The position numbers and the translations under genes were made by a program. Shown piece by piece: positions 17,667-35,373 of a stretch of DNA of 64,000 bases (within the stretch, counting starts at the first letter, position 1; every line of letters begins with the position of its first letter). Below the pieces are notes generated by a model. It did no database searches. It saw only the letters and a program-made list of their open reading frames with translations, and was not told where the DNA came from. This DNA is from an uncultured delta proteobacterium (GTDB lineage Bacteria; Desulfobacterota; Binatia; DP-6). The stretch is taken from assembly GCA_963815115.1 (NCBI GenBank), contig CAWFFN010000007.1:672001-736000 (forward strand), read 5' to 3'.

Positions 17667-17670
17667 GGCC

Positions 17671-17952
17671 ATGCCTATGAACACGGCCGCCCGTAGTCAG
17701 CGCCTCGAGGCACGCGTTACCCCCGAGCAGAAGAAGCGCCTTCAGCAGGCAGCTGACCTGCAGGGCCAGACCGTGACCGCCTTCGTCGTCAGCAGCGCGC
17801 AGGAAGCGGCCGCCCGCACGATCCAGGAGCACACCATCATGACCCTGAGCGAGCGGGATCGGGAAGTCTTCGTGTCTGCGTTGCTCACCCCGACCGTCCC
17901 CATAGGCAGACTGGCGAAGGCGGCGCGGCGGTACAAGCGGCTTCGCGGCTGA
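17671..17952 (+). CDS. DUF1778 ribbon-helix-helix antitoxin (AtaR/TacA family)
   Basis: RLEARVTPEQKKRLQQAADLQGQTVTAFVVSSA..LSERDREVFVSAL. Confidence 0.92.
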   Translation: MPMNTAARSQRLEARVTPEQKKRLQQAADLQGQTVTAFVVSSAQEAAARTIQEHTIMTLSERDREVFVSALLTPTVPIGRLAKAARRYKRLRG

Positions 17953-18477: not shown

Positions 18478-18614
18478 AGGGATGACGCCCAAAAGCCGAC
18501 CGCTGGTGACCGAGCAGCGTCACAGGCGCAACGGCCAGCGCAGGCCCCCGTCCGGCCACCGCTCCGTGGACGCGCGTGGACGCAGTCGGCCGCACAGGTT
18601 TCGTGCCGCGCGCC

Positions 18615-18661
18615 ATACCCGTCGTCTAGTCCGGCCGAGGACGTCGGCCTTTCACGCCGGT
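18615..18661 (+). pseudogene. 5' half of tRNA-Glu(TTC), T-arm missing
   Basis: atacccg-tc-gtctagtccggccgaggac-g-tcggc-CTTTCAC-gccgg gives a Glu-type D arm and anticodon arm; no GTTCGA follows. Confidence 0.65.
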
Positions 18662-19387
18662 GGGGCCTGCTATCGGGGTGCAACGGATGTTGCCCTCCGA
18701 TGGCGAAGACGCAAGTGCCGCAAGGGTTTCCGCGACGGATGGCAACCGCCCTCTCGATGCTGCTGAGTGGCGGTTGCCACACGTTCGCGCACAAACCGCA
18801 CACAGTCTACGCGCGTGGCGCACTGCCCAGCGCAGGCCCCGCTGGCTACCGAGCCGTTGACGCGCGTTGACGCCGACGCCGACGGGCCCGATAGTACCTC
18901 GGGCGACAGGCGCGCCGAGTGGTGGTCCCTGAAGAGGTACTCCTGCCGCAGCCCGTCCCGACGGGACGCCGCACCACTCTGGACCGTCGGCGTCGCCTGC
19001 CGCACGGATCGGCACGAGCCTGGCGCACGATGGGTCGCCTGAAGAGCCGGTGCATGGCCGACGCCGCGTGATGCAGCAGGGGCCGTGCTCCGATGGGCCA
19101 CGAACGAAGGTGCGCGCGGCGGTGCGCACTGACCAGCACCGGCCCTCACAGTCTGCAGCTTCGTTGACGCTTGCCAACCCAGCCCGTCGGGCGCGGCGGC
19201 GGGGCACGGTACTGACATCGTCGAGAAGAGGAAGGAGTACCAAAGGGGTATTCGCCCTTCGCGCCGACCGGCCACCGGCTCGGCGCGTCTCCCAGCCCGG
19301 CGCTGTTCCGGAACGAGCGCGACCGCAGGGGCCGTTGGCAGCAGTGGGCGCCCGCCGCAGGCGGCCCGCCGGCGCCGACTCGATCCT

Positions 19388-20204
19388 CTACTTCTGCTGG
19401 ACGGTCCCGTTGCCGCCTCGGAGCGGGATCGGATTGGTCCGCGTGCCGACCTGGTGGTACAGGGCGCCACCCGGTTTGTGGATCGAGAGCGCATACATAT
19501 CGGACGAGCCGCCCGCGCCGCCGTCGAAGAAGTCCACCCGGAAGGTGAAGTTGCCGCCGCCGATGCCCGGCACGGCGCGCCCCGTCCGCGGATCGACCGC
19601 CGTGATCGTGCAGTTGCCGGCGAAGAAGGCCACCTGCGGGCTGCTGATCACCAACGCGCCGCTCACCCACGACGTGGACTTCATGACGTAGTCGTAGCCG
19701 TCGGCGCCGAGGAACGAGTACGAGGCGTGGCCTATCGGACCCGTCGACCCGGGCTGGAACCGGACGTCGAACCTGAGGTGGCCCTTCGGATTGGTCGACG
19801 AGACCGGAACGGGCATGTTCCTGTACGAGGGATCGATCACCCAACTGCGGCGTCTGATCCACGCGCCCGGGGAGGGAGCGTAGACGGTGAGCATGTCAGG
19901 GTCGCTCGCCGGTCCGCTGTAGCGGGTGTTTGCCGGATCGACCCGGACCACGACCGTGTAGGTGTCGGCGCCGAGGGAGAGCGAGGCGCCTGTGACGAGC
20001 CCCGAGGCGTCGACGGTCCCGGGGACGATCACGTCCGGAGTGCTCATCGAGAGGTTGCCGGAGCCGTAGAGCAGGAACTGGGCAGACGCCTGGGTGAGAT
20101 CGCCCGGATTGCCGTCCACCTCCTGGGCGAGCTGGCCCGTGAGCGTGACGGTCGCGGTCGTCACCGTTGCCGAGCCGGTGGAGACGTAGTTCGGTGCGAC
20201 GTAG
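19388..20204 (-). pseudogene. C-terminal part of a large secreted beta-rich protein, N-terminus removed by IS3 insertion/deletion
   Basis: Coherent Ser/Thr/Gly-rich reading ending GGNGTVQQK*; the 5' end runs directly into IS3 orfB sequence. Confidence 0.65.
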
Positions 20205-20269
20205 GCGGCGGGCATCGCGCCGTCCGTCGGCACGGTCGGTGACTCCTATGACAACGCCCTCGCCGAATC

Positions 20270-21645
20270 GGGCTAAGATCAGCAGGTGTGTAAAAGAGGA
20301 TCGGGCGACGTAACCTTCCGGCTGCCGAAGCCAGACCCGGTTGGCGCCGGGTGGAAGGAGACATCGCCCATGAGGAGACGTAGCAGAGAGGAGCGCCCGA
20401 GGACCAGGCCGACGTGGGAGACGTTGGAGGGCTGGGTCCGGGAGAAGGTCCAGGAGTTCGTGCAGGATCTCTTGGAGGTGGAGGTGACGGAGTTGCTCGG
20501 TCGCCAGCGACACGAGCGGCGGGCCGGGATCGATGCGCCGGTCGGCTACCGCAACGGCTACGGGAAGCCGCGGCGGCTGGCGATGCAGACCGGGACGCTC
20601 GTGGTGCAGCGGCCGCGGGTGCGCGGGCTCGAGGAGCACTTCGAGAGTCGGGTGCTGCCGCTGTTCGCGCGGCGCACCGAGCAAGTGGCCGATCTGTTGC
20701 CCGAGCTCTACCTGCACGGGTTGGCCCAAGGGGACTTCGAGCTGGCGTTGCGAGGCCTGCTCGGCGACGGCGCGCCGTTGAGTGCGAAGTCGATCGAGCG
20801 CCTGCGAGCGAAGTTCGTGCGCGACTACGACCTGTGGAAGACCCGCCGGTTCGACGAGCACGAACTCGTGTACGCGTGGGCCGACGGGATCTATGTGCGC
20901 GCCGGGCTCGAGCGGGAGAAGGCGGCGTTGCTCGTGATCATCGGGGCGCTGCGCGACGGGCGCAAGGAAGTGCTCGCGGTCGTGCCCGGCTACCGCGAGT
21001 CGACCGACTCGTGGCGCGGGGTGCTGCGCGACTTGCGCGACCGCGGGCTCCAGGTGCCGAAGCTGCTGGCGGCCGACGGCGCTGCGGGGATCTGGGCCGC
21101 CGTCGCCGAGATCTGGCCCGGGGCCGCCGAGCAGCGGTGCTGGAATCACAAGATCGTGAACGTGTTGACCCAGCTCCCGAAGAAAGTGCAGGCCGCGGCA
21201 CGGGAGGCCTTGGCCGCGATCCCCTACGCGCCCACGCGCGCGGACGCCGAGCGCCGGCGCGATGCGTTCGCGAAGACGTACCGACGCGTGTACCCGCGCG
21301 CGGTCGAGATTCTCGAGACGGATTGGGACCGCCTCGTGACCTTCTACGATTTCCCGGAGGGCCACTGGAAGCATCTGCGGACGACGAACGTGATCGAGTC
21401 GCCGTTCGCGGCCGTGCGCCTGCGGACCGACGCGGCGAAGCGGTTCAAGAAGGTTGACAACGCGACGGCGCTGCTGTGGCGGTTGCTCATGGTCGCCGAA
21501 CGGCGCTTCCGCCGCCTCGATGCGCCCGAGTTGCTCGCCGCGGTCTACGACGGGAGGAAGTTCGAGGACGGAAAGCTCGTCAAGGAGAAGGCGCTGAAGG
21601 CCGCCGCCTGATCCTCAGGATTTACACACCGATTGACGCGAGCCC
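20270..21645 (+). mobile_element. IS256-family element, complete
   Basis: Terminal IRs gggct..ggtgtgtaaa / tttacacacc..agccc; 8-bp target duplication GCCGAATC (20262-20269, 21646-21653). Confidence 0.93.
20370..21611 (+). CDS. IS256 family transposase
   Basis: YRNGY, WADGIY, AADGAAG, QRCWNHK and LRTTNVIESPF motifs; AAGGAG RBS. Confidence 0.95.
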   Translation: MRRRSREERPRTRPTWETLEGWVREKVQEFVQDLLEVEVTELLGRQRHERRAGIDAPVGYRNGYGKPRRLAMQTGTLVVQRPRVRGLEEHFESRVLPLFARRTEQVADLLPELYLHGLAQGDFELALRGLLGDGAPLSAKSIERLRAKFVRDYDLWKTRRFDEHELVYAWADGIYVRAGLEREKAALLVIIGALRDGRKEVLAVVPGYRESTDSWRGVLRDLRDRGLQVPKLLAADGAAGIWAAVAEIWPGAAEQRCWNHKIVNVLTQLPKKVQAAAREALAAIPYAPTRADAERRRDAFAKTYRRVYPRAVEILETDWDRLVTFYDFPEGHWKHLRTTNVIESPFAAVRLRTDAAKRFKKVDNATALLWRLLMVAERRFRRLDAPELLAAVYDGRKFEDGKLVKEKALKAAA

Positions 21646-22425
21646 GCCGAATCTGTGATCGGCCTCTATAAGACGGAGGTGATCCGACGCCAAGGTCCGT
21701 GGCGCCACGTCGAGGCCGTCGAATTCGCGACGCTCTCGTGGGTCGACTGGTTCAACACCCGGCGGCTCCTCGCGCCCCTTGGCCACGTGCCGCCGATCGA
21801 GTACGAGCGCGCCTACTACGAACGTCACGCAACTCCCGCCACGGAGGCCGGACTCAACTAATCGAGCCTCCGGCGAAGCCGGGCCGGTTCAGACAGCGTC
21901 AGCGAGTTGCTTCCACGCCGTGGGCGATGGCCATGCGAAATCGGAAGAGCGGATCCGGTGCACGTTCGGATTTGCCAACAGGGGGCGCGGGAGAATCGGT
22001 AGAAGCGCGGTCGATCCGACTGCTTTGAGAAATGTGCGCCGGTGCATTGAGACCTCCCGATTCTGCTAAGTTGTGACGTTTGCCAGTCAGGCGTGAAATG
22101 AAGCCCCATATGGTCATTCCCCGGGGGCCGGCCCCGGTCCGCCACGAAGAACGGCTTATTCCGCGCGGACCGGTTCGCCACTCTATCACAGTAGCGCATG
22201 GGGTACCTAGCTAGGGTTGGCCGGTCGTCTCCACAGTGTCGTTGGTCGCGGACTACAGAGTTTCGTCGCCGCGAGGGAACTCGCCATCAGCCACTACTCC
22301 CCCCTGCGACTCGCACGTGTCTACACCGACCACTCTGCAGTGCCAATCGAGGCCAGCTAACCCACATTTGCTCCTCGGTACCATTCTGGAATAGGAGCGA
22401 ACCTCCGCGACAACGGGAGGTGGAG

Positions 22426-22614
22426 ATGCCCCGACGCAAGAGTCTCATCACGATCATCCGCGAGTTCGTGCAGGAAGAGGTGCGACGCGCTATGACGGGT
22501 CTTCTCGGGACGTCCGCTCCAAAGAAGCGCCCCAAGAATGGCCGCCGTCGTCGTCGCCGGCGTGGCCCTGGACGTCCACCGGGCTCAAAGAACAAGCGTC
22601 AAAGGACTCTTTAA
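22426..22614 (+). CDS. 62-aa basic protein with AT-hook (RGPGRPPGSKNK); putative nucleoid-associated protein
   Basis: GGAGG RBS; amphipathic N-terminal helix, poly-Arg run and GRP core. Confidence 0.7.
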   Translation: MPRRKSLITIIREFVQEEVRRAMTGLLGTSAPKKRPKNGRRRRRRRGPGRPPGSKNKRQRTL

Positions 22615-22857
22615 CGTGCTTTCCCTGAACTGGGAGCACTAGCAGTTCGTCTCCGCGCCGTCGGCAACGCAGTAGGCCGTTGAATACGCCGCTCGACGGC
22701 GAGCGGGCGCCGGGGATGTCCATGGGCACGTCGCCCACGCCTTTCGCCACGAGCTTCGCCTAAGGGGCCCTCCTCTACCTGGGCCTTTACGGTTCGAGCG
22801 CGCAGGAGTAGGAAGGTGGTCGTCGCGGACGCGTGTCCGCGCGGGAGGGAGGCAGCC

Positions 22858-23139
22858 GTGCCGATTTACGTCACGTTGTTCAAGTGGACCGATCAGGGGC
22901 GCAAGGACGTCGGGACACTGCCCGATCGCGCCGCCGCCGTTGCGAAGCGGATCGAACAGGTCGGCGGGAAGGTGATCGGCAACTACGTCACGATGGGTCA
23001 GTACGACCAGATCGCGATAACGGAGGCACCCGACGACGAGACCGTCGCGAAGATGGCGCTCATCATCGCCGGCCGCGGAAACGCAGTTAGCGAGACTTTG
23101 CGCGGCTTCACGATGGACGAGGTGCGCAAGCTGGTCTGA
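22858..23139 (+). CDS. GYD domain-containing protein
   Basis: YVTLFKWTDQG..GGK..TMGQYD..EAPDDE..GNAVSETLRGF. Confidence 0.88.
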   Translation: MPIYVTLFKWTDQGRKDVGTLPDRAAAVAKRIEQVGGKVIGNYVTMGQYDQIAITEAPDDETVAKMALIIAGRGNAVSETLRGFTMDEVRKLV

Positions 23140-23500
23140 GAAGTGTGGGCTACGTGCGCGAAGGGCCTCCCCATCGAAGGGAAAGAACTCCGGGGGTTAT
23201 CCCGGGGCCCGGAAAGGCCCCTAAAATAAAGACACTACCGGGCTAGGTCGCGGCCGAGGTTCTCGTGCTAGCACGAGCAAAGGGGGGAACCTAATGATGT
23301 CTCCTAACAGGCTCTTGCAAGTGGCCTTGGCCGTATTTGGTGCAGTCTTTCTCCTTATTTATCCGCTGGCGATCGTGTGGCCGTCCGGCTGGGCGTGGCA
23401 CGCCGGCGCGCCCTATGAATCCCAGTACTTCATGATGATCGTCGGAGTATACGCGACGCTCGGCGTCTTTGGGCTTGCCCCGTTTCGGCGAACACCTGAG

Positions 23501-24382
23501 TTAAGCCGCCGCGCGGCGACTCCAGTATCGGTCCTCGTAGTCGACGGGGCTCATCATGTCGATGGCTGAGTGCCGGCGCTGGCGGTTGTAGACGGCTTCG
23601 ATCCAGTGGACCGTTGCCGTCCGTGTGCGAGCCCGGGTCGGCCATGACCGGGGCTCGATGAGCTCGAGCTTGTAGGTCGCGAAGAACGACTCGGCGAGCG
23701 CATTGTCCCAGCACACGCCGGTCTTGCCCATCGACTGCTTCACGCCGTGCGTCTCGCACAGTGCCCGGAACTCGGCCGAGGTATATTGGCTTCCCCTGTC
23801 CGAGTGAAAGATGACACCCTCGACGTCCCCGCCGCGCGTAGCGACGGCCATCGTCAACGCGTCGCACACGAGCGATGCGCGCATGTGACCGGCCAACGAA
23901 AATCCGATCACGCGACGCGAGAAGACGTCGATGACCGTCGCCAGGTACAGCCAGCCCTCCCACGTGCGAATGTAGGTGATGTCGCCGACCCACAGCACGT
24001 CGGGAGCTGGGGCCTCGAACTGGCCGTGAACGAGATCGGGGATCGACGGCGGCGTCGGCTCCGGTGTCGTCGTGCGGACCCAGCGCGGTGGGCGACGACC
24101 TCGCAGGCCCGCCGCCTTCATCAAGCGAGCCACGCGCTTGCGGCCAACGTCGTGGCCCTGGGCCTGCAACTCCGCCAACACGCGGGGCACGCCGTATTGG
24201 CCGTCCGACGCGGCATGGATCGCTCGAATCTTCACCAGCAGTGCTGCGTCGTCTCGTTCACGCTGCGACGGCTGCCCGTTCTGCCACTCGTAGTAGGCGG
24301 TGCGGGAGACCTGGGCCATCCGGCAAAGCTGCGTCACCGAATACCGACGACTCTCCGCCTCGACGAACCGGTACCGGCTCAT
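23501..24382 (-). CDS. IS3 transposase OrfB (DDE)
   Basis: WVGDITYI..WLYLATVID, FHSDRGSQYTS, CWDNALAESFF. Confidence 0.93.
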   Translation of the reverse strand: MSRYRFVEAESRRYSVTQLCRMAQVSRTAYYEWQNGQPSQRERDDAALLVKIRAIHAASDGQYGVPRVLAELQAQGHDVGRKRVARLMKAAGLRGRRPPRWVRTTTPEPTPPSIPDLVHGQFEAPAPDVLWVGDITYIRTWEGWLYLATVIDVFSRRVIGFSLAGHMRASLVCDALTMAVATRGGDVEGVIFHSDRGSQYTSAEFRALCETHGVKQSMGKTGVCWDNALAESFFATYKLELIEPRSWPTRARTRTATVHWIEAVYNRQRRHSAIDMMSPVDYEDRYWSRRAAA

Positions 24383-24696
24383 CGGGTCTCCATCGCGAAG
24401 AAAGCCGCCGCCCGCTTCAAGATGTCCCGCTCGTCGCGGAGCACCCGCACCTCGCGTCGCAACCGACGCAGCTCCTCGCGCTCCTCGGTCGTCAGCCCGT
24501 CCTGTTCCCCCGCGTCCACTGCCGCTTGCTCGACCCAGTGGCGTACCGCCGTCTCGCTCAGGTCCATCTCCCGACAAATCGTCGGGATCGTCCGGTCACC
24601 CTGTCGCACCAAGGCGACGACCTCGGCCTTGAACGACGTCGTGAACGATCGCCGCGGTCGGCGACTCGCTCCCTTGCCCTCCACCTTCTTCCCCAT
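24379..24696 (-). CDS. IS3 transposase OrfA (HTH)
   Basis: RRSFTTSFKAEVV..ETAVRHWV..ILKRAAAFF; ATGA overlap with orfB. Confidence 0.92.
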   Translation of the reverse strand: MGKKVEGKGASRRPRRSFTTSFKAEVVALVRQGDRTIPTICREMDLSETAVRHWVEQAAVDAGEQDGLTTEEREELRRLRREVRVLRDERDILKRAAAFFAMETR

Positions 24697-26083
24697 TCGA
24701 ACACCCTCCTCGTGGGCTCACGCCCACATCTGGGGTGTTCGCCGGTCGGGGGCAAGTCCACTTCCTATTGAATGCGTCGAGAAACCCGCAAGCGCATCGC
24801 AGCTTAATCTGGTTCACAGTGTGGTCGAGCGTCGTGCACGCCGGCATCATGGCGGTTCAATCGATGCCCGCTGCACATAGCGGTCACTTGCTTGGTGATG
24901 TGCCCGCCCTTATCCTCGTCGCGATTGTTCTCGGCGGTTTGCTTGTGCGGGCGGAACAGGGGCAAGCCAAAGCTGCTTAGCAACGCTCCGCGGGCGCGGG
25001 GCTGGGCGAGCGCACCCTGCCGCGATCCTCGTCTCGTTTCGCCACCGTCGCCGGCTCGGCTAGCTCAGCCAGGGCCGACACATCCCCCGCCGGCACTTCC
25101 ATAGACAGCGCCTTCCATAGACACCACGCCCCATCGGCTCGACGAGATGCTTCGCCGCGAGGGCATCATCACGTGAAGAGACGGGATAGTTGGCCCGCGC
25201 CAAAACCCCCGGGACAGCACACCCCGAAAGCCGCGTGTTCCCGGCCCCGGGAAGCCTCCTTCCCGCCGCGCCAAAACCGTTTGGTTTTGACTCGGAGCCC
25301 ATTTCTTCCTCGCGCACACCAGCTGCCAAGAGCGCTCGGCGGACCTGAAGGCGGCGAAGCTGTTTTCGGGCGCTGGGCGCCTCCCCGCACTCGGGGGACT
25401 ATCCCTATTCCGGTTCCATCGCGGCTTCCACCCGTCCTGAGCGCATCGCCTTTTTGAGGATTGCATGGTCGCGTTCACTCTGATCGGCGTAGGCGATGGC
25501 GAACGCCGCAATGGCTTTGGCGAAGGCGTCGCTCTTGCCGAGGTACCCGCTGATCTCGGCGGGGGCACCGGAGCGGGCGTGGGCGCGCGCCAGCGTCCAT
25601 CCACAGATCTCGGCGTACTGGGTCATCATGACTGGGCTGAACAAGTCAACGAGAGCCCCGACCTTCATGTCCTTCAGTTGGCGGATGTAGAAGTGCCGGC
25701 CGAGCTCAGCCTTCGTCCAACCGAGGAACATGTCACTCGCCGATTGCATGAGGCGGTAGCCGTTCACGACCCGCTGCCCATGGTTGCGGTAGATGCTCTT
25801 GCCGGCATACGCCTCCAGCACCGAGGAGCGCGCCTCTTTGACCTGGAGGAACAGAGGATCCCGCTCGCTCGCCATCAGGAGCATCACGGCACAGAAGGTC
25901 CCGACGCTGCCGACACCGACCACCTTGATGGCGATGTCCTTGAGCTCAAAACGGTCGATGAGCACACGGCGGTCTTCTTCTAGTGACTCCCGATAGCCGG
26001 CAAAGGCCGCTCGGGTACGCGTGAGCAAATCCCTTACACCCTGCGGAGCCTGTCAATGAGAATGAGACAGTGGGTTCCGGAAT

Positions 26084-27262
26084 TTAGTGTAGATCCTCCG
26101 TGTTGAGCGGCGCGACGGCCGCGATGTCGGGTTCGGTGCCGATCGATCCGAATCGCTCGCGGACACCGATTCGGGGGGATACCTCGGTAAGGGTCGAGTC
26201 CGCTGCGTGGCTGTGCGGGGCTCTGGACGCGAAGGTGGTGACGACCTCGGCCTCGGAATCGCGAGGGTGCTTGGCGAGCGCCGCCTTCGGCTTGTTGATC
26301 CAGACCGCGCTCGGCAACGCCGGCGGGCGCGGAAGCCCCGCGACGAAGCGCTCGGGATGGGCGGCGAACGCTGCGGCCAGCACGCGTGCACGCGCCTCGA
26401 CCCGCTGCTCGGCCAGCCCGTAGTGGACCTCGTGAGGCGTGAGCATCCCGAGGCCCGAGTGCCGGTGCTCGGTGTTGTACCAGGGGAAGAAGGCGTGACC
26501 ATGCCCGCGGGCGTGCTGGATCGACCCGAATCGATCGGGGAAATCCGGCCGATACTTCAGCGTTTTGAACTGCGCCTCGGAGAAGGGGTTGTCGTTCGAC
26601 ACGTAGGGCCGCGAATGGGTCTTGGTGACCCCGAGGTCCGAGAGCAGCAGCGCCACCGGCTTCGAGGTCATCGACGGCCCGCGGTCAGCATGGAGCGTGA
26701 GCTCGCCCGGCGTGATCCCCTGCCGCCGGCAGCTCTGCTCGATCAGCTTCCTCGCCAGCGCCGCGCGCTCCTCGTGAGCGACCATCCAGCCGACGACGTA
26801 GCGGCTGAAGAGGTCCAGGATCACGTAGAGGTAGAAGTACGTCCATTTTGCCGGCCCGAGGAGTTTCGTGATGTCCCAGCTCCAGACCTGGTTCGGCGCC
26901 ATGGCCAGGAGCTCGGGCGCCGCGTACGACGGGTGGCGGAGCTGATCCCGTCGCTCGTGCACCTCGTGATGCTCCGCCAGAATCCGATACATCGTCCGCT
27001 CCGAGCAGAGGTAGCGCTTGGCATCGAGCAGCTGGGCGTAGACCTGCGCCGGGGCGAGATCGACGAACCCGGGTTGGTGCAGCACTGCGAGCACGGCCGT
27101 GCGTTCGGCGACGGCGAGCTTACGTGGCGGACTCGGGCGAGGTGCAGCGGGCGGCGTCGGGCTGATCCGCCGGTAGTAGGTGGCCGGCGGCAGGCCGAGC
27201 GCCGCGCAGGTCGGCGCGATCCCGAGCCGCGGCCCCACCTCGCGAACCGTCTCGATCGTCAT
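26084..27262 (-). CDS. IS3 transposase OrfB
   Basis: WSWDITKL, LHADRG, SNDNPFSEAQFKTLKY. Confidence 0.93.
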   Translation of the reverse strand: MTIETVREVGPRLGIAPTCAALGLPPATYYRRISPTPPAAPRPSPPRKLAVAERTAVLAVLHQPGFVDLAPAQVYAQLLDAKRYLCSERTMYRILAEHHEVHERRDQLRHPSYAAPELLAMAPNQVWSWDITKLLGPAKWTYFYLYVILDLFSRYVVGWMVAHEERAALARKLIEQSCRRQGITPGELTLHADRGPSMTSKPVALLLSDLGVTKTHSRPYVSNDNPFSEAQFKTLKYRPDFPDRFGSIQHARGHGHAFFPWYNTEHRHSGLGMLTPHEVHYGLAEQRVEARARVLAAAFAAHPERFVAGLPRPPALPSAVWINKPKAALAKHPRDSEAEVVTTFASRAPHSHAADSTLTEVSPRIGVRERFGSIGTEPDIAAVAPLNTEDLH

Positions 27263-27759
27263 TTCTCGCTCTCGAACGGAGTCCCCAGCAGCGCCGCGAG
27301 TTTTTTTTGAACATCGACCAGCGCCTCGGCCCGCTCGGCCCGCTTCCTCCAGCGCGTGATCTCCCGCTCCTGCTCGACGATCTTCTTGTCCCGTGGATCG
27401 GGCGGCACGAGCTTCGGTCCCCGCTTCTGCGCCGACAGCCCCTCGAGCTCACCCCGGTCGCGAGCCGCGCGCCACGTCGTCAGGAGCGAGGAGTACAGCC
27501 CCTCGCGCCGAAGCAGCGCGCCGATCTCGCCCGGCTTTGTGCAGCGGTCCGCCTCGCGCACGATCCGCCGCTTGTACTCCGCCGTGAACCGCCGCCGCTC
27601 TGCCTTGGCCACGACTTCGATCTCCGGCCTCGCTTCCCTCGCGATCACTCCCGCCGGCGGCGCGCCGACCGGGAAAACTCCAGTCGCCCTACGGGCTCCT
27701 TCCGTTTCCCCGGCCTCCTCCATCCTCTCATCCCTCGCCTTCTTTCCGACCACCTTCAT
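27259..27759 (-). CDS. IS3 transposase OrfA
   Basis: RRRFTAEYKRRIV..LLRREGLYSS..WR; A8 run near the 3' end, ATGA overlap. Confidence 0.88.
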   Translation of the reverse strand: MKVVGKKARDERMEEAGETEGARRATGVFPVGAPPAGVIAREARPEIEVVAKAERRRFTAEYKRRIVREADRCTKPGEIGALLRREGLYSSLLTTWRAARDRGELEGLSAQKRGPKLVPPDPRDKKIVEQEREITRWRKRAERAEALVDVQKKLAALLGTPFESEK

Positions 27760-28155
27760 CCATCTCGGCCTCCCCGCCCTCTACAGTAAACTATCGCTAC
27801 TCCACTGTCTCACGATCATTGGCAGAGAGGGCTGTTCGCGCGGGTGGTAGATCAAGGGAGGGTTGTCCTTGATGGTCGGCGCCTGACCGGCCATGGCCGC
27901 GAGCTTGGGAAAGTCATGCTCCAACACGCTGCGGGCACGAGCCTTGGCCAGCATCTTCTGATGCCGGCGACGAGCTTCTTTGTCCTTGATCGTCGGGAGC
28001 ACTTTCTCGACGTCTATGCTCGCATACCACACGTCCAGCACCGGCATCTGACTGTACTCCGCCGTCCGTTCGCGATACGAGCGAACACATGCAAGCACTG
28101 CATCGCGAGCGCAGGCGGAGCCTGTCAATGAGAATGAGACAGTGGGTTCCGGAAT

Positions 28156-29334
28156 TTAGTGTAGATCCTCCGTGTTGAGCGGCGCGACGGCCGCGATGTC
28201 GGGTTCGGTGCCGATCGATCCGAATCGCTCGCGGACACCGATTCGGGGGGATACCTCGGTAAGGGTCGAGTCCGCTGCGTGGCTGTGCGGGGCTCTGGAC
28301 GCGAAGGTGGTGACGACCTCGGCCTCGGAATCGCGAGGGTGCTTGGCGAGCGCCGCCTTCGGCTTGTTGATCCAGACCGCGCTCGGCAACGCCGGCGGGC
28401 GCGGAAGCCCCGCGACGAAGCGCTCGGGATGGGCGGCGAACGCTGCGGCCAGCACGCGTGCACGCGCCTCGACCCGCTGCTCGGCCAGCCCGTAGTGGAC
28501 CTCGTGAGGCGTGAGCATCCCGAGGCCCGAGTGCCGGTGCTCGGTGTTGTACCAGGGGAAGAAGGCGTGACCATGCCCGCGGGCGTGCTGGATCGACCCG
28601 AATCGATCGGGGAAATCCGGCCGATACTTCAGCGTTTTGAACTGCGCCTCGGAGAAGGGGTTGTCGTTCGACACGTAGGGCCGCGAATGGGTCTTGGTGA
28701 CCCCGAGGTCCGAGAGCAGCAGCGCCACCGGCTTCGAGGTCATCGACGGCCCGCGGTCAGCATGGAGCGTGAGCTCGCCCGGCGTGATCCCCTGCCGCCG
28801 GCAGCTCTGCTCGATCAGCTTCCTCGCCAGCGCCGCGCGCTCCTCGTGAGCGACCATCCAGCCCACGACGTAGCGGCTGAAGAGGTCCAGGATCACGTAG
28901 AGGTAGAAGTACGTCCATTTTGCCGGCCCGAGGAGTTTCGTGATGTCCCAGCTCCAGACCTGGTTCGGCGCCATGGCCAGGAGCTCGGGCGCCGCGTACG
29001 ACGGGTGGCGGAGCTGATCCCGTCGCTCGTGCACCTCGTGATGCTCCGCCAGAATCCGATACATCGTCCGCTCCGAGCAGAGGTAGCGCTTGGCATCGAG
29101 CAGCTGGGCGTAGACCTGCGCCGGGGCGAGATCGACGAACCCGGGTTGGTGCAGCACTGCGAGCACGGCCGTGCGTTCGGCGACGGCGAGCTTACGTGGC
29201 GGACTCGGGCGAGGTGCAGCGGGCGGCGTCGGGCTGATCCGCCGGTAGTAGGTGGCCGGCGGCAGGCCGAGCGCCGCGCAGGTCGGCGCGATCCCGAGCC
29301 GCGGCCCCACCTCGCGAACCGTCTCGATCGTCAT
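28156..29334 (-). CDS. IS3 transposase OrfB
   Basis: Protein identical to 26084..27262. Confidence 0.93.
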   Translation of the reverse strand: MTIETVREVGPRLGIAPTCAALGLPPATYYRRISPTPPAAPRPSPPRKLAVAERTAVLAVLHQPGFVDLAPAQVYAQLLDAKRYLCSERTMYRILAEHHEVHERRDQLRHPSYAAPELLAMAPNQVWSWDITKLLGPAKWTYFYLYVILDLFSRYVVGWMVAHEERAALARKLIEQSCRRQGITPGELTLHADRGPSMTSKPVALLLSDLGVTKTHSRPYVSNDNPFSEAQFKTLKYRPDFPDRFGSIQHARGHGHAFFPWYNTEHRHSGLGMLTPHEVHYGLAEQRVEARARVLAAAFAAHPERFVAGLPRPPALPSAVWINKPKAALAKHPRDSEAEVVTTFASRAPHSHAADSTLTEVSPRIGVRERFGSIGTEPDIAAVAPLNTEDLH

Positions 29335-29831
29335 TTCTCGCTCTCGAACGGAGTCCCCAGCAGCGCCGCGAGTTTTTTTTGAACATCGACCAGCGCCTCG
29401 GCCCGCTCGGCCCGCTTCCTCCAGCGCGTGATCTCCCGCTCCTGCTCGACGATCTTCTTGTCCCGTGGATCGGGCGGCACGAGCTTCGGTCCCCGCTTCT
29501 GCGCCGACAGCCCCTCGAGCTCACCCCGGTCGCGAGCCGCGCGCCACGTCGTCAGGAGCGAGGAGTACAGCCCCTCGCGCCGAAGCAGCGCGCCGATCTC
29601 GCCCGGCTTTGTGCAGCGGTCCGCCTCGCGCACGATCCGCCGCTTGTACTCCGCCGTGAACCGCCGCCGCTCTGCCTTGGCCACGACTTCGATCTCCGGC
29701 CTCGCTTCCCTCGCGATCACTCCCGCCGGCGGCGCGCCGACCGGGAAAACTCCAGTCGCCCTACGGGCTCCTTCCGTTTCCCCGGCCTCCTCCATCCTCT
29801 CATCCCTCGCCTTCTTTCCGACCACCTTCAT
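29331..29831 (-). CDS. IS3 transposase OrfA
   Basis: Protein identical to 27259..27759. Confidence 0.88.
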   Translation of the reverse strand: MKVVGKKARDERMEEAGETEGARRATGVFPVGAPPAGVIAREARPEIEVVAKAERRRFTAEYKRRIVREADRCTKPGEIGALLRREGLYSSLLTTWRAARDRGELEGLSAQKRGPKLVPPDPRDKKIVEQEREITRWRKRAERAEALVDVQKKLAALLGTPFESEK

Positions 29832-29903
29832 CCATCTCGGCCTCCCCGCCCTCTACAGTAAACTATCGCTACTCCACTGTCTCACGATCATTGGCAGAGA
29901 GGG

Positions 29904-29996
29904 TGCGCTGGCTCGCACCTCGGTCGGAAGCTTCTCCAGCACCTTGCCGATCTGCTCAAGACGACCGGCGCGGGTCTTGAACTCCTCATCATTCAC
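29904..29996 (-). pseudogene. First 31 codons of a gene-cassette ORF truncated by IS3
   Basis: GGAAAGGGG RBS, then GTG MNDEEFKTRAGRLEQIGKVLEKLPTEVRASA, starting just after the attC R' box. Confidence 0.6.
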
Positions 29997-30017
29997 AAAG
30001 GACCCCTTTCCGGTGTT

Positions 30018-30095
30018 GACTAACGTTTGAGTTCACCCGCTCGCGGAAGGGGGGGAAGCCCGCTGTAGCGAGTCGGGTGCAACGAAGGGTTAGCC
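30018..30095 (-). other. Integron attC site (78 bp)
   Basis: Minus strand GGCTAAC-ccttcgttgcacccgactcgc..gcgagcgggtgaactcaaac-GTTAGTC; imperfect palindrome; the ORF stop TAA lies inside R''. Confidence 0.88.
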
Positions 30096-30524
30096 GTCAC
30101 GGAAGATTTCCTCTCCAGAGGTGAGTTCCCACTGCAGCGACCTACGATTGAGCTCGAAGAAGCGCCAGGATTGTCCTCGCTTCCATTCGAACAGCACCAC
30201 AGAGCGTGCCCCATACTCACGCGCTACTTCGCGTAGGCGAACGCAGTCCTCATGTGTGGGCGGACGTGCAGTGCCACCCTTGACTTGAACAAGGACGATC
30301 TCGAAGAGATCGCCGCGCTTCAGGAGAGGGCTCTTTGGTTGCTTCGTATTCTTCCGAACCGCTACGAGGTCAACGACGCCCCGCCACTCACCTTTGCCTT
30401 TGCCCCGGAACGACACGAACTGCCAACGCTGGGCTACCGGCCTACTCAGAGCGCGGAACATAGTTTCCGCCCACCGCCCGGTTGTATGGGCTTTGACATG
30501 TGCAGGGACGTTGGCGTCTGTCAT
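30090..30524 (-). CDS. Small PD-(D/E)xK-type nuclease (Hjc/restriction-endonuclease-like), integron cassette
   Basis: GRWAE..GVVDLVAVRK..IVLVQVKGG; bounded by two attC sites. Confidence 0.7.
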   Translation of the reverse strand: MTDANVPAHVKAHTTGRWAETMFRALSRPVAQRWQFVSFRGKGKGEWRGVVDLVAVRKNTKQPKSPLLKRGDLFEIVLVQVKGGTARPPTHEDCVRLREVAREYGARSVVLFEWKRGQSWRFFELNRRSLQWELTSGEEIFRDG

Positions 30525-30538
30525 CGCCTGCGGGTGAC

Positions 30539-30597
30539 GGCTAACGTCCTGCCGATCAGCGGCGGACGAAGTCCGGCCGCTGCATCGCTTGTTAGCC
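30539..30597 (-). other. Integron attC site (59 bp)
   Basis: Minus strand GGCTAAC-aagcgatgcagcggccggac-ttc-gtccgccgctgatcggcaggac-GTTAGCC. Confidence 0.9.
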
Positions 30598-30606
30598 TGT
30601 GTTGTC

Positions 30607-31491
30607 CTAGTCGTCGGGTGCCAAGTAGTACACCGGGCGCAAAGGGAGCAGGCGCCTCTGGGGTTCGGGAATCCGGTCGTAGTGCTCCGTCCAGAGATCG
30701 AACAGCCGTTTCAGATCCACGAGCATGATGCGCCTCTTCTCCTGCCGCCGAGCTTCGTCCTCGGCATCGCGCGTAAACCCACCCGTGGATACGAACAGGC
30801 CTACGTCTGAGTCCCCGAGGAGGGCCATGAAGCCACGGACGCCGTCCACCGCTATTCTGTCTGCCCTTCGCTTCACCTGTGCCTTGATCCGGGGACCTTT
30901 CACACCAAGCGGATCCATATGCGCCACAATGTCGATTCCTTTGTCAGGCCCTGGGGGCGAGACCCACTCCACGAAGTAGCCCATTCCGCGCAGCAGCCCG
31001 GCGACTAGTTCCTGAAAGTCGTAGGGACTCATCTTTTCGAGGAACGTCTCGATTTCCGACCATGCCGATTCCTCGGCCTCCTCGAGCGTCGTGGCTGCTT
31101 CGCCGGATTCCTCTTCCTCTTCGGCTTCCGGGTCCGTCGGCTGGTCGGCCTTCCACGCTCGGTACAGTCGGCCGGCCTCGCGATAGAAGGCCTCCGGGTC
31201 CTTGAACCTGCCGAAGGCCGCACGCCCATCATCGGTGAGCGACCATGCCCCCTTGTTCTTGATTAGCCACCCAGCCTTCACCGCCCCGATAGTGGAGAAC
31301 CGCACGATCTTTTCGTACCGCCGTACCGTTGGTCGATTCGGATAGGTGCTTGCCTCAAACTCCGAAGGTGGCACCAGTTCCTCAAGTCGCCTGAGCACCT
31401 CCTTGGCAGGAACGGCGTCGACTTGCTGCGAGAGGATCTGAAACACGCCGCGGACAAGTTCGCCAGAGCGCCTTCGTGTGATCTCCGCCAT
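30607..31491 (-). CDS. mrr: Mrr-family type IV restriction endonuclease (Mrr_N + Mrr_cat)
   Basis: N-terminal wHTH (KAGWL..GAWSLTDDG); MSPYDFQELVAGLLRGMGY..PDKGIDI..AQVKR..GLFVSTGGFT. Confidence 0.9.
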   Translation of the reverse strand: MAEITRRRSGELVRGVFQILSQQVDAVPAKEVLRRLEELVPPSEFEASTYPNRPTVRRYEKIVRFSTIGAVKAGWLIKNKGAWSLTDDGRAAFGRFKDPEAFYREAGRLYRAWKADQPTDPEAEEEEESGEAATTLEEAEESAWSEIETFLEKMSPYDFQELVAGLLRGMGYFVEWVSPPGPDKGIDIVAHMDPLGVKGPRIKAQVKRRADRIAVDGVRGFMALLGDSDVGLFVSTGGFTRDAEDEARRQEKRRIMLVDLKRLFDLWTEHYDRIPEPQRRLLPLRPVYYLAPDD

Positions 31492-31591
31492 TCTCAGGGT
31501 CCTGTTCTTGCCCGCCCCATTCCCGCCCCATGGCGGGCTGCGGTTGTGATGATCTTGTAGATGAACTGAGCAAACCTAAGGGCTTACGAAG

Positions 31592-31665
31592 TGGCGGCGG
31601 GCCGGATCGAACGGCCGACCTAGGGATTATGAGACCCTCGCTCTAGCCAACTGAGCTACGCCGCC
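31592..31665 (-). tRNA. tRNA-Met (CAT), probably elongator; CCA not encoded
   Basis: GGCGGCGTAGCTCAGTTGGCTAGAGCGAGGGT-CTCATAA-TCCCTAGGTCGGCCGTTCGATCCGGCCCGCCGCCA folds as a cloverleaf. Ile2 cannot be fully excluded. Confidence 0.93.
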
Positions 31666-31742
31666 GAGAGAGCGAAGCCGGGCACTTAGCAGTGGCGCCC
31701 TACCCCTGCAACCGCTCTGGGTGTCCATGGTGGTGTCCACGT

Positions 31743-31912
31743 TCAGCCCTTCGCCGCCTCCACTGCCTCGGTCATGGCGAGTGCTGCCACCTTGGCGGTG
31801 CCTGCGTGATGACGTACCTCCGGTGTGCGGAGTCGGTCTTGTGCCCGGAGATGACACGCGCCGTCGAATCCGGAACACCAGCTTCGGGAGATTGGTCAGC
31901 GAAGCCGATGGA
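31743..31912 (-). pseudogene. Frameshifted C-terminal relic of a tyrosine integrase
   Basis: SASLTNL/EAGVPDSTARVISGHKTDSAHRRYVIT matches the box II H and catalytic Y pattern; followed by a tggacacc direct repeat. Confidence 0.7.
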
Positions 31913-32129
31913 CGAGCGCGACCACCAGCCAACGCTCGCTCCGCGTAGAGCACGAGAGCATCCGCCGTCGTGAGCTTCTGTCGATCATTGAAATGGCTAG
32001 TTCCCACCCAAGACCGCATCCACGCAACGCCATTTGACGGGGAACCAAGCTCGGGGCATTGAGGCGCCGGGGACGAGGATCGTCGTGGGTGGTCTGCCGA
32101 CTTCGATGACCGATTCAAAGGAGGCGAGC

Positions 32130-32498
32130 ATGGGACTCGAAAGGATGCTGACGACGTTCGGACTGGTTGCGGCTCTGTTCAGCGCGGCTCTGCCCACCCG
32201 GTGCGTATGGGCCGAGATGGCGGGGCACGACATGGCCGACATGGTGAAGAACGCCAAGACGGCCGCGGATCACGAGGCACTTGCCGCCATGTACGACAAG
32301 GAGGCGGCGGACGCCAAGGCGCGCGCCGCAGATCACCGGCAAATGGCGGAGAGTTACAAGTCCAACACGGGCAGGGGGACGGGAGCCAGTTCCATGCCCC
32401 AGCACTGCGCGAGTCTCATCAAATCCTTCGAGCAGCAGGCCACCATGTACGAGAAGATGGCGGCAACCGAGCGCGCAGAAGCCAAGAGAGCAAAGTAG
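32130..32498 (+). CDS. Small secreted helical His/Met-rich protein
   Basis: AAGGAGG RBS, signal peptide, AKTAADHEALAAMY..ADHRQMA..QHC. Confidence 0.82.
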   Translation: MGLERMLTTFGLVAALFSAALPTRCVWAEMAGHDMADMVKNAKTAADHEALAAMYDKEAADAKARAADHRQMAESYKSNTGRGTGASSMPQHCASLIKSFEQQATMYEKMAATERAEAKRAK

Positions 32499-32557
32499 TC
32501 CGGTCGGTCTGGTCAGGCGGGTTGCCCCGGCAGACGGCAGGCGCTCCTCGCCCTTAC

Positions 32558-32665
32558 CTAGGGCGACCCGAGACTCCGTCTCGGGTCGAAAGCGGAGGGG
32601 AGCGTGTGGCGTTCGGCGAATCGAGCGGACGCCGTGCCGCGGCCGGCAAAGCCGGCGCGGCAAAC
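32558..32665 (+). repeat. Bipartite double-hairpin dispersed repeat, copy 1
   Basis: cgacccgagac-tcc-gtctcgggtcg, a ~45-nt spacer, then tgccgcggccggc-aaa-gccggcgcggcaaac. Confidence 0.8.
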
Positions 32666-32837
32666 CGCGGCATGCCCAAGGCTCCGTCCCACTCCGTCCT
32701 GCGCCGAGTTGGGTGCCGGCTGAACGGGAGCTCTCGCCGACGAAGAAGCGGCACTGGGAGGCGTCACGGCGACGAGCGGACTACCCACAGTCTGACTCTG
32801 CGCGGAAGCCGATCGCGCACCGAGTAGCGCGAGGAGT

Positions 32838-33245
32838 CTACTCCATGCCCCAGGAGAAGACGTTCGTCGGCGACACCTCCACGATGACGGATTCGCCCTC
32901 CTCCAGGGCAGCCTTGTCGGGATACTGGGGATATTTCGAGTAGAGGAGCTTCCGGAACTTCTTGAACCGTGAACCCTTCTCGATGAAGGCGGCCGTTCCC
33001 TGGATCATGACACCCTTCAGCTGCGTCCAATCGTCGGAGTACAGGTCGATGGTCACGGCGACCTTGGGAGTCGCGCGCAGGTTCCGTACCTTGCGGGCGT
33101 TCTTCTGCGACGCGAAGTACAGCTTCCCGTCGGTGAGCAGGTGACAGACGGGAACCGTGTGGGGAGTGCGTCGCGCGTCCACGGTCGCAACGCGACAGAC
33201 ACGCTGCCACTCGACTAGCTGGGCGACGGACTTCTTGAGGCGCAT
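32838..33245 (-). CDS. Pyridoxamine 5'-phosphate oxidase-like (PPOX class, possibly F420-dependent) protein
   Basis: CRVATVDA..PHTVPV..KVRNLRATPKVAVTID..GVMIQGTA. Confidence 0.88.
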   Translation of the reverse strand: MRLKKSVAQLVEWQRVCRVATVDARRTPHTVPVCHLLTDGKLYFASQKNARKVRNLRATPKVAVTIDLYSDDWTQLKGVMIQGTAAFIEKGSRFKKFRKLLYSKYPQYPDKAALEEGESVIVEVSPTNVFSWGME

Positions 33246-33420
33246 GCTGTTCCCTCCTCGGGCCGAGTCTACACGCGCGGCACCGTACGACTACCGGGAA
33301 TTCGTCTGCGCCGCTGACTCTGCGCCGCTGACCATGTCCGCGCACCGAGGCGAGAGACTCCCTCCGTATCTTGCACTGACGCAGCCCGCATGGTGAGTGG
33401 AAGCGGGAAAGGAGGCGTAC

Positions 33421-34386
33421 ATGTCATTGACGCCATCCGAATCGCTGCAGCATCTGCGCCTCGCGCTCGAGCTGTCCGGGGTCGACGCGGAGGTGGTTCT
33501 TCCCGAGGCGCGGCACGTCGTCGTCCACGACACGCGCTTGCACTACCTCGACCGGGGAACCCCGGGCCGGCCACCGATCCTCTTCCTGCACGGCGGTGCC
33601 CTCACGGCGCATACCTGGGATGTCGTGTGCCTCGGACTGCGCGGTGACTACCATTGCGTTGCCCTCGATCAGCGCGGCCACGGCGACAGCGAGTGGTCGC
33701 CGATCGTGGACTACTTTCCCGACGCGCACGCGCGAGACATCCACGGGGTGCTCGATGCGCTGGGATTCACCTCCGTCGTGCTCGTGGGTCAGTCCATGGG
33801 AGGCATGAACGCCTTCGTCTACACGACCCAGCATCCCGAGCGCGTCGCCGGCCTGGTTCTGGTCGACGTGGGACCGGAGGTTCGCCTGGCGGGCGCGAAG
33901 CGCATCGGCGAGTTCGTCGCCAGCACCGCGGAGATCGACTCGATCGATGCCTTCGTCGAGCAGGCGATGACGTTCAACCCGATGCGCGATCGCCGCCTGC
34001 TGGCCGCGAGCGTACGCAACAACGTGCGACAGCTGCCGAATGGCCGCTGGACGCGCAAGAACGACACCCGCTTCTTCGGCCAGATCGGCGCGGAGGAGAT
34101 CGCGCGGCGCATCGAGCCCCATTGGAAGAACACGGCCAGGGTCACCTGCCCGGTGCTGGTGGTCCGCGGGGCCTTGAGCGACGTCCTGCTCGACGACGCC
34201 GCGGAGCGCTTCGCGCGGTCGCTCCCGTGCGGGCGCTGGACGAGGATCGAAGGCGCCGGGCACACCGTGCAGGGCGACAACCCCGTCGGCTTGATCACCG
34301 CGCTGCGCGAGTTCCTCGACGCCGTGGATTCCGGCGGTACCGCGCCCGGATGGTCTGCTGCCGGCGGCCCGCGGTCCAGCGGGTAG
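33421..34386 (+). CDS. Alpha/beta hydrolase
   Basis: LFLHGG, DQRGHGDS, GQSMGG, GAGHTVQGDNP. Confidence 0.92.
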   Translation: MSLTPSESLQHLRLALELSGVDAEVVLPEARHVVVHDTRLHYLDRGTPGRPPILFLHGGALTAHTWDVVCLGLRGDYHCVALDQRGHGDSEWSPIVDYFPDAHARDIHGVLDALGFTSVVLVGQSMGGMNAFVYTTQHPERVAGLVLVDVGPEVRLAGAKRIGEFVASTAEIDSIDAFVEQAMTFNPMRDRRLLAASVRNNVRQLPNGRWTRKNDTRFFGQIGAEEIARRIEPHWKNTARVTCPVLVVRGALSDVLLDDAAERFARSLPCGRWTRIEGAGHTVQGDNPVGLITALREFLDAVDSGGTAPGWSAAGGPRSSG

Positions 34387-34482
34387 GTCTCCACGGGCGA
34401 GCGACCAGCGGTCATCCTGCAACCGGGGAGTTGCATTGCATTTCCCCCGGCGGTCCGCTTTCCATCGTACGCCGGAGCGAAG

Positions 34483-34638
34483 GAGATCGACCGCCGCCGC
34501 CTCGAGGATGCGCGCCGGTTCCTCGACGGCGTCTCGCAGCAGTGGGACCAGGCGCTCGCTCGCCTCAGAGCACTGGTGGAAGCGCCGTCGCCGGCCGTCT
34601 CGCGTGGACGAGCCGGCCCCGGCCGGCGGCGCCGATGA
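34483..34638 (+). pseudogene. C-terminal remnant of an ArsR-family regulator
   Basis: EIDRRRLEDARRFLDGVSQQWDQALARLRALVE; no in-frame start or HTH upstream. Confidence 0.55.
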
Positions 34639-34662
34639 CCTGCGCCGGAAGCCGACCCGCCC

Positions 34663-35373
34663 TCAGCGCGACCGCCCGGCCGGAAGGGCGCTGCGCCGCG
34701 CCTGACGCTCGCCCGCTGCCACCTGGTGGAGCACGCGATCGGGCAGCTCCAGAGCGGTCAGTGCGCCCCCGTAGACCAGACCGGTGTCGATGCCGATCTT
34801 GTACGGCAGATCGACCAGCACCTCCCGCCCGGGCGTGTGGCCGAAGACGATGGTCTCCGGCATGCCGTGGGGGCGCCTGAGGAACTCTTCGCGGATCCAG
34901 AACAGGTCCTCGTCGCTCTGCTGCTCCCAGGGAACATCCGGCCGGATGCCAGCGTGGACGAAGAGGTAACCGCCCCACCGGTAGGCGCGTTCGAGACCCT
35001 CGAGGAACGTGAGGTGCGCTTCGGGAATCGCGGCCTCCACCACCGCGGGCTCCGCGCGCGCGTCGACGCCGTAGCTCCGCACGGCGGCCGAGCCTCCGTT
35101 GGCCAGCCACGAATCGCCCCAGTTCCCCGCCCGTCCGAGGAACGACAGGCACATGTCCTCGTGGTTTCCTTTGAGGAACATCCAGTCGACATCGGTGCGC
35201 TTGCGCGCGTCGAGCAGCAGGTCGATGACGCCCTTCGAGTCCGGCCCGCGGTCGATGTAGTCGCCGACGAAGCAGACGGCGTCGCCGGCGGCCAGCGGGA
35301 GGCCGTCGAGGAGCGCGCCGAGCTCGGCGGGGTTGCCGTGCACGTCACCGATCGCGAACAGCCGCTTGCTCAT
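34663..35373 (-). CDS. Metallophosphoesterase (PPP/ApaH-like Ser/Thr phosphatase)
   Basis: GDVHG, GDYIDRG, GNHE, VHAG, FGHT, IDTG. Confidence 0.92.
   Translation of the reverse strand: MSKRLFAIGDVHGNPAELGALLDGLPLAAGDAVCFVGDYIDRGPDSKGVIDLLLDARKRTDVDWMFLKGNHEDMCLSFLGRAGNWGDSWLANGGSAAVRSYGVDARAEPAVVEAAIPEAHLTFLEGLERAYRWGGYLFVHAGIRPDVPWEQQSDEDLFWIREEFLRRPHGMPETIVFGHTPGREVLVDLPYKIGIDTGLVYGGALTALELPDRVLHQVAAGERQARRSALPAGRSR

Follow-up and report, generated by a model that had tools for sequence, protein, structure and literature searches.

What are two integron-type recombination sites doing close to a transfer RNA (tRNA) gene, in a stretch of DNA where no integron integrase is found? The question is raised by a 64-kb stretch of contig C7 of genome G000 (G000:C7:672001-736000; this whole stretch is called the window below, and coordinates given without a contig are window positions). 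Its minus strand carries, in this order, a tRNA-Met gene, 100 nt, an mrr gene of the same orientation, a palindrome of 59 nt (attC1), an open reading frame (ORF) for 144 amino acids (aa), a palindrome of 78 nt (attC2) and a truncated ORF. This anatomy had been given in a preliminary description of the window, and all of it, coordinates included, was confirmed. Both palindromes are attC sites, and the locus is an ordinary attC cluster without an integron integrase (CALIN); it is probably a fragment of a cassette array, made up of two complete cassettes and the beginning of another, and lies on the tRNA side of a decayed tRNA-Met island of 14.2 kb, at its edge.

The attC sites were recognised with a covariance model, R1, built from three attC of this genome (C5:521927, C9:621787 and C9:1784547), none of which comes from the window. 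Crude palindrome scans (NNNNAAC...GTTNNNN with folding) were too noisy in a genome of 70% G+C and returned hundreds of hairpins; a stricter TAAC...GTTA hairpin scan supplied the seed sites, located downstream of both integron integrase genes (intI) of the genome and at the lone position C9:1784547. RNAalifold, applied to a MAFFT alignment of six attC of unequal length, put the structure out of register, and three short sites with a structure set by hand were therefore used: a 7-bp R pair and a spacer, then 3 bp and 6 bp, each with one unpaired base behind it, and a stem. R1 was run on the whole window with filters off, and 47 matches were listed at E ≤ 10. On the minus strand attC1 scored 39.5 bits (E = 2.5e-9) and attC2 scored 35.6 bits (E = 4e-8), while the third-best match in the window reached only 16.9 bits (E = 0.026), which leaves a gap of about 19 bits or more; R1 found no further attC in the window. 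The opposite (plus) strand of attC1 gave 10.4 bits, so the recognition is strand-specific. Both palindromes are thus matched by a covariance model, a kind of test that had been proposed for them in the preliminary description.

The geometry of the two window sites is that of the resident attC: the 7-bp R pair, 4–5 nt, then 3 bp and 6 bp with a single unpaired base behind each, and the stem. An alignment of 23 attC showed pairing in 91.2% of cells, compared with 78.1 ± 1.3 for shuffles and 16–40% for slid partners, the alignment having been fitted to R1, which favours this result; compensatory changes were found in 11 of the 18 pairs. The core boxes of attC1 and attC2 keep AAC and GTT without change. 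On the minus strand, which also carries the ORFs, the unpaired bases fall in the 5' half of the sites, and this is the orientation of normal cassettes. attC1 is 89% identical to the resident attC at C9:618101-618155. Rfam offered no attC family, and apart from the tRNA its only match in the window was a sub-threshold one to YrlA. Metagenome contigs from public runs that match only the attC2 span (approximately 30020-30096) and are unlike the window in the flanks on both sides give a weak indication, at 88% likeness, of an attC type common to different cassettes; no run contained more than 0.13 of the sampled words, and four runs gave only short contigs, without joints and without any sign of expression or excision, the uncovered parts carrying no meaning.

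The middle cassette obeys the circle rule, as had been noticed earlier: it starts with TTAGCC, its own R'' is GGCTAAC, and its stop codon lies inside R''. The genome has 18 matches to the intI profile TIGR02249 (curated cut-off 265 bits), none of them in the window, and no GTTRRRY precedes mrr, which bears out the earlier statement that the two attC have no local intI or attI. A CALIN, as defined in the part of Cury et al. considered here (PMC4889954), is a group of at least two attC clustered within 4 kb with no integron integrase nearby; the two attC of the window lie 443 nt apart on one strand, with 0 of 18 profile matches in the 64 kb. The features of a complete integron, that is, an intI with an adjacent attI and a cassette promoter (Pc) next to the cassettes, are lacking at the locus.

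Two intI that exceed the TIGR02249 cut-off are present elsewhere in the genome, where the preliminary description had suggested looking for them, at C9:616301-617218 (431.7 bits) and at C5:519851-520699 (389.3 bits), and after each of them, on its 3' side, R1 finds four attC on the intI strand. The C9 gene is apparently intact, and an action of the resident intI in trans is plausible. The resident integrons span C9:616301-621852 (L010) and C5:519757-522675 (L009), and in both the intI and the cassettes are co-directional, not divergent. A lone well-formed attC lies far from either intI at C9:1784547-1784606 (positions 8547-8606 of L011), and the only other R1 match in its 18-kb locus has 14.3 bits. 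A whole-genome R1 search scored only 150 of 3114 first-look candidates, missed the two attC of the window and is no census of sites.

The gene nearest to the tRNA is predicted to encode an Mrr-type (type IV) restriction endonuclease: the product matches Pfam Mrr_cat (E = 1.3e-21, 77.3 bits at a cut-off of 21), PADLOC PDC-S02 (E = 2.3e-43) and mREase_IV (E = 6e-9), and the match to Mrr_N, 23.1 bits, is under the cut-off of 29.5. Homologues with 64–89% identity occur in metagenome-assembled genomes (MAGs) labelled Eisenbacteria, Gammaproteobacteria, Syntrophales, Bryobacteraceae, Acidobacteria, Planctomycetota, Aminicenantes, Bacillota and others. Scanning of 26 such loci with R1 revealed an attC adjoining mrr in L021 (Eisenbacteria label, 89% aa identity), L027 (Acidobacteria, 82%) and L028 (Planctomycetota, 83%), 10–14 nt past the Mrr match; in the window attC1 starts 10 nt past the mrr stop. 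All three loci have more attC on the same strand, and a crude scan of 25 loci agrees. The DNA of mrr with its attC has a mean column identity of 81% over the four sequences (the window, L021, L027 and L028). In L027 the preceding attC ends with GTTAGCC 22 nt before the ATG; this is the junction that a crossover should leave, its sequence being complementary to the R'' of the cassette itself, GGCTAAC, and 28 nt separate the crossover from the ATG. Since mrr and its attC stand between attC sites in three MAGs labelled with other phyla, mrr is not an island gene with a seeding attC, as had been supposed in the preliminary description; these comparisons indicate that mrr and attC1 are a cassette unit and arrived together. 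The genome of L021 (G301) has an intI with one in-frame TGA (C3:15024-15962, 462.9 bits), which would lie 5–9 kb from the mrr cassette if C3 is the contig of L021. Inspection by eye of L021 at 3700-3990, before its mrr cassette, shows what looks like the C-terminal part of a transposase and an insertion sequence (IS) end about 27 nt ahead of the ATG, so that the 5' boundary of the cassette appears disrupted there as well.

The island that contains the cluster begins at the tRNA-Met, one of three CAT tRNAs among the 60 tRNAs of the genome. The last 45 nt of this tRNA recur at 17433-17477 with one mismatch and in the same orientation. In G003, a genome of the same genus, about 80 nt directly beside the tRNA match window positions 17350-17432, i.e., the sequence beyond the distant repeat; this is an empty site, and the 14.2 kb between the repeats are therefore an insertion. 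In G001 (locus L018), of the same genus too, the tRNA and the next 80 nt are shared up to 31511 with approximately 95% identity and are followed by unrelated cargo (blastn of window 31511-31779 against L018 gave 84%); no R1 match was found in this sister island, the contig of which ends 2.3 kb past the tRNA. The array had been described as fused directly behind the tRNA, which does not hold, since the 80-nt arm shared with G001 intervenes and the cluster lies within the repeat-bounded island. A DNA search of 40 relatives found no match to mrr or to the 144-aa gene, only to the tRNA and to short attC-like pieces, and the 144-aa protein was found, among other genomes, in four of 300 from the class and none of 24 from the family; together these results point to a variable content at this tRNA. 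The variation that the preliminary description had proposed to look for across relatives is also seen directly, G003 being empty and G001 holding other cargo. The G+C content is 0.60–0.66 over 21.3–33.9 kb, compared with about 0.70–0.75 around, and the low stretch runs past the tRNA. The other cargo of the island comprises two copies of an IS3-family element, a split DUF2252 gene, a second IS3-family element, a Mutator-family transposase, a GYD-domain gene and a GNAT gene.

Both ends of the cluster are inferred to have been made by processes other than IntI. On the left, the homology to the G001 arm stops at 31511 and the homology to the mrr cassettes starts at approximately 31510, about 19 nt before the ATG, and the junction GGGCGGG|CAAGAAC has neither G|TT nor TTAGCC. 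Compared with L027, the mrr cassette of the window appears to be without its first few nucleotides; a junction made by IntI at an attI, an attC or a secondary site of the GWT type (10.1101/2022.09.11.507474) would keep them, which argues that the left end was not made by IntI. A deletion or an illegitimate junction a few nucleotides inside the mrr cassette would account for this end. On the right, IS copy 2 has no target-site duplication and joins the third cassette to the interior of the DUF2252 gene, at profile position ~102. The DUF2252 remnants correspond to profile positions 102–193 and 197–392, the N-terminal ~100 positions being gone, and IS copy 1 is a simple insertion that split this gene between profile positions 193 and 197. 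A single base separates the two IS copies, and the genome has no others; the remainder of the third cassette was not found, with only these two copies in the genome and no more attC detected by R1 in the window. The simplest reading of the right end would be an IS-mediated adjacent deletion in which the remaining cassettes were lost together with the beginning of DUF2252. With both ends most readily taken as products of ordinary rearrangement, the cluster is best read as a stranded array fragment and not as a site under construction, that is, as a case of origin (iv) or (iii) of Cury et al. (PMC4889954).

Rearrangement and secondary-site insertion are both among the CALIN origins proposed in the part of that study considered here (PMC4889954), and the latter deserves attention at this locus. 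A resident IntI might have placed a circular mrr cassette at an attG-type GWT site in the arm, attC × attC additions might have followed, and the left junction would have been eroded later. The two intI of the genome, with their R1-detectable attC, would provide the enzyme; insertion by IntI1 at genomic GWT sites, with expression near a promoter, has been demonstrated by experiment (10.1101/2022.09.11.507474); and, as the cassettes are directed away from the tRNA, they could be driven by a promoter outside the array. This course of events is nevertheless unlikely, as the place where cassette homology begins (GGGCGGG|CAAGAAC) has no G|TT(RRRY), the ~19 cassette-like nucleotides before the ATG contrast with 28 nt in the intact L027, and the two GTT triplets further upstream sit in the arm that is shared with the cassette-less G001. 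The preliminary description went further and envisaged a native mrr with an attC behind it that served as a landing pad for capture in trans, the tRNA promoter replacing Pc, the whole forming a hybrid defence platform. The position of the cluster, 100 nt past the tRNA in the same orientation with no terminator-like site between them on the minus strand, is in line with this proposal, as are the presence of intI elsewhere in the genome and the nuclease-type proteins encoded by both complete cassettes. It is nonetheless very unlikely: mrr and attC1 travel together as a cassette in three other MAGs, with approximately 81% of the DNA conserved, attC included; the array is decaying, not growing, its third cassette being cut by an IS and followed by two IS copies and a broken DUF2252 gene; the G001 sister island has the same arm and no attC; and the tRNA-driven transcription is a supposition. 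The term hybrid defence platform, moreover, covers nothing beyond the CALIN category as published in the part of PMC4889954 considered here. As for chance G+C-rich palindromes, or hairpins like those of terminators or repetitive extragenic palindromes (REP), a 70% G+C genome supplies them by the hundred in crude scans; this explanation was rejected, and its probability is close to nil, in view of the R1 separation of about 19 bits or more and the geometry shared with the resident attC, the conservation of attC1 together with mrr across phylum labels, and the compensatory changes.

The array-fragment reading that is preferred here has points against it as well. R1 rests on three sequences, which makes it narrow and the E-values quoted above rough. 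The R'' GGCTAAC departs from RYYYAAC at one position, and the R' boxes GTTAGCC and GTTAGTC each depart from GTTRRRY at one; a one-position departure of the core boxes occurs in some of the resident attC too. Read on the strand as written, the sites of this genome have a G as their first extrahelical base, and classical attC have another base at this position. The R1 match adjoins mrr in only three of the 26 loci with mrr homologues; the gene exists outside cassettes also. For the 144-aa homologues R1 finds an attC at one of six metagenome loci and at none of four loci in genomes of the class. In the C5 intI the first 38 profile positions fall in a different reading frame, so that a frameshift or an assembly error is suspected there. 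Pfam searches of the larger ORFs of the island revealed no tyrosine or serine recombinase or integrase that would account for its arrival. Finally, the recombination of attC1 and attC2 by the resident IntI is a prediction from sequence, as are the anti-phage role and the expression of the cassettes.

Cassettes are normally without promoters of their own and, with no Pc at the locus, a source beyond the array must supply their expression. The nearest candidate would be transcription that runs on from the tRNA gene. On the minus strand, the stretch from the tRNA to mrr showed neither a sigma-70-like promoter nor a terminator-like hairpin in a crude scan, which may not suit this organism. An AGGA nine nucleotides ahead of the mrr ATG is conserved in L021. 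Excision or exchange by the C9 IntI is plausible, and the cassettes can probably still be excised and re-inserted in trans by this enzyme via the folded bottom strands of their attC; an exchange between CALIN and integrons has been suggested by Cury et al. (PMC4889954). The mrr and 144-aa genes would most likely act as single-gene anti-phage nucleases, Mrr cutting modified DNA. The tRNA-Met islands of this lineage have an 80-nt arm in common behind which the cargo is exchanged, the first cargo in this genome being the cassette cluster. If the tRNA promoter drives the cassettes and the resident IntI shuffles them in trans, the island edge would be a second, integrase-free site of cassette expression; there is a slight chance that this is so, and tRNA islands would then be connected with integrons in a way not yet described as such.

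The second cassette gene was called a nuclease ORF in the preliminary description, a name that is upheld at the level of the fold and lacks a match to any sequence family. The 144-aa protein has no match in Pfam or PADLOC; it has 341 homologues at E ≤ 0.001, most of them of about 141 aa and none with a Pfam domain. AlphaFold2 modelling gave a structure with a pLDDT of 80.4 and a pTM of 0.75, and a Foldseek search with this model revealed similarity to chains of the SPARDA complex and to the archaeal Holliday-junction resolvase Hjc (E from 1.6e-4 to 2e-3, TM 0.39–0.57); the portion of SPARDA that was matched is presumably its nuclease domain. The model is consistent with a PD-(D/E)XK-like fold, and 'nuclease' is a fair reading of the fold. 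E20, D52, Q80 and K82 are invariant among 25 aligned sequences; the position two before K82 is thus an invariant Q where D or E is usual in PD-(D/E)XK, so that any catalytic activity of the protein is putative. The homologue on metagenome contig L053 (77% aa identity) sits between attC sites, as a cassette would: an attC of 33.2 bits lies upstream, and a weak attC-like site (12.9 bits, E = 0.087) that closely resembles attC2 follows just downstream.

Compared with published CALIN, the locus has the usual appearance, with attC on one strand, co-oriented ORFs, no intI nearby and intI elsewhere in the genome, a small size and IS elements beside it, which agrees with the rearrangement origins proposed in PMC4889954; it differs in lying 100 nt from a tRNA gene, on the margin of an island integrated there, in having two ends that both allow a reading as non-IntI junctions, and in its uncultured host lineage of high G+C. 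Restriction systems of types II and IV and other defences are common in cassettes according to the part of 10.1101/2024.07.02.601686 considered here. The cassettes of the window resemble such anti-phage integron cassettes (10.1101/2024.07.02.601686; 10.1101/2024.07.02.601719, as far as these sources were drawn on) in being short, single-gene and of nuclease type, one of them an Mrr_cat protein matching a PADLOC candidate; they differ in that their anti-phage role is predicted, in lying in a CALIN and not under a Pc, and in the position of the 144-aa family outside Pfam and PADLOC. The insertions at genomic attG sites, as outlined in the portion of 10.1101/2022.09.11.507474 used here, are similar in having cassettes outside an integron, in an IntI-encoding genome and with a likely strong promoter adjacent; unlike them, the window locus lacks the G|TT expected of a GWT site at its left end. 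The 45-nt repeat, the empty site in a relative, the low G+C content, the many IS and the other cargo in the sister genome are features of tRNA-integrated (defence) islands, from which this island differs in that no integrase was found inside the repeats and part of the cargo is an integron-type cassette cluster. No description of a CALIN at the edge of a tRNA island was found in the literature by a search that was not designed to exclude one and did not cover supplements.

Three aspects go modestly beyond the textbook: the tRNA-proximal island edge, whose arm is common to a differently loaded sister island; the wide spread of one mrr and attC unit over phylum labels; and the uncharacterised 144-aa family with its nuclease-like features. 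The locus is a well-documented example of the look and decay of integrase-less cassette clusters, an array fragment left behind in a tRNA island, with an IS cutting it at one end and a junction not made by IntI at the other, in a genome that still has intI. A single Mrr cassette, gene and attC, occurs with approximately 81% DNA identity in arrays across four phylum labels, which agrees with the way cassettes have lately come to be seen, as a common pool of small anti-phage genes. With 341 homologues, no Pfam family and a fold predicted to be nuclease-like, the 144-aa proteins would be a reasonable choice for defence screens. Nothing here alters what is known about integrons. The features of the island and the cluster are collected in the table.

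Table. Coordinates (window positions) of the cassette cluster and of the tRNA-Met island around it.
Feature	Position	Strand	Details
tRNA-Met (CAT)	31591-31665	-	ARAGORN; Rfam RF00005 tRNA, 63.6 bits
Left direct repeat (attL core), 3' 45 nt of tRNA-Met	31592-31636		Island boundary
80-nt island arm, from tRNA to cassette cluster	31511-31590	-	Common to tRNA-Met island of G001
mrr, 294 aa	30607-31491	-	Cassette gene for a predicted Mrr-type (type IV-like) restriction endonuclease
attC1, 59 nt	30539-30597	-	R'' GGCTAAC, R' GTTAGCC; belongs to mrr cassette
ORF of cassette 2, 144 aa	30090-30524	-	From ORF list; TAA stop within attC2 R'' GGCTAAC
attC2, 78 nt	30018-30095	-	R'' GGCTAAC, R' GTTAGTC
ORF of third cassette, first 31 codons, GTG start at 29996	29904-29996	-	From ORF list; cut by IS
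IS3-family element, copy 2	28115-29903	-	orfA 166 aa and orfB 392 aa; Pfam rve, rve_3, HTH_Tnp_1
IS3-family element, copy 1	26043-27831		Splits DUF2252 gene
DUF2252 gene remnants	27832-28114 and 25405-26042 (whole span 25405-28114)	-	Pfam DUF2252
Right direct repeat, 45-nt copy of tRNA 3' end	17433-17477	-	1 mismatch; blastn 97.8%
tRNA-Met island, 14.2 kb	17433-31636		Bounded by 45-nt repeats

Some minor observations concern the island and its surroundings. The identity of the two IS copies runs 7 nt and 6 nt past their 24-nt inverted repeats, and there is no clear target duplication in either. Near the distal repeat, at 17953-18477 on the plus strand, lies the ORF of the GNAT acetyltransferase (174 aa). 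In the cargo of the G001 island, at 12750-15030 of L018 (G001:C17), inspection by eye picked out one ORF similar to a very-short-patch-repair endonuclease and another, of 271 aa, in which an ...IEVKSS motif occurs. On the minus strand at 31780-32010, upstream of the tRNA, the translation ...ISGHKTDSAHRRYVITQ... looked by eye like the C-terminus of a frameshifted tyrosine recombinase (the resemblance lying at about 31780-31900); Pfam found nothing in it at E ≤ 1, and it is no more than a lead. In G002, of the same genus, the tRNA lies about 70 nt from a homologue of the gene at 34668, the corresponding stretch of the window being 31677-34668. These 3 kb on the 5' side of the tRNA, which contain a 154-aa ORF, a PNPOx-like gene and an alpha/beta hydrolase gene, are also variable and of low G+C content.

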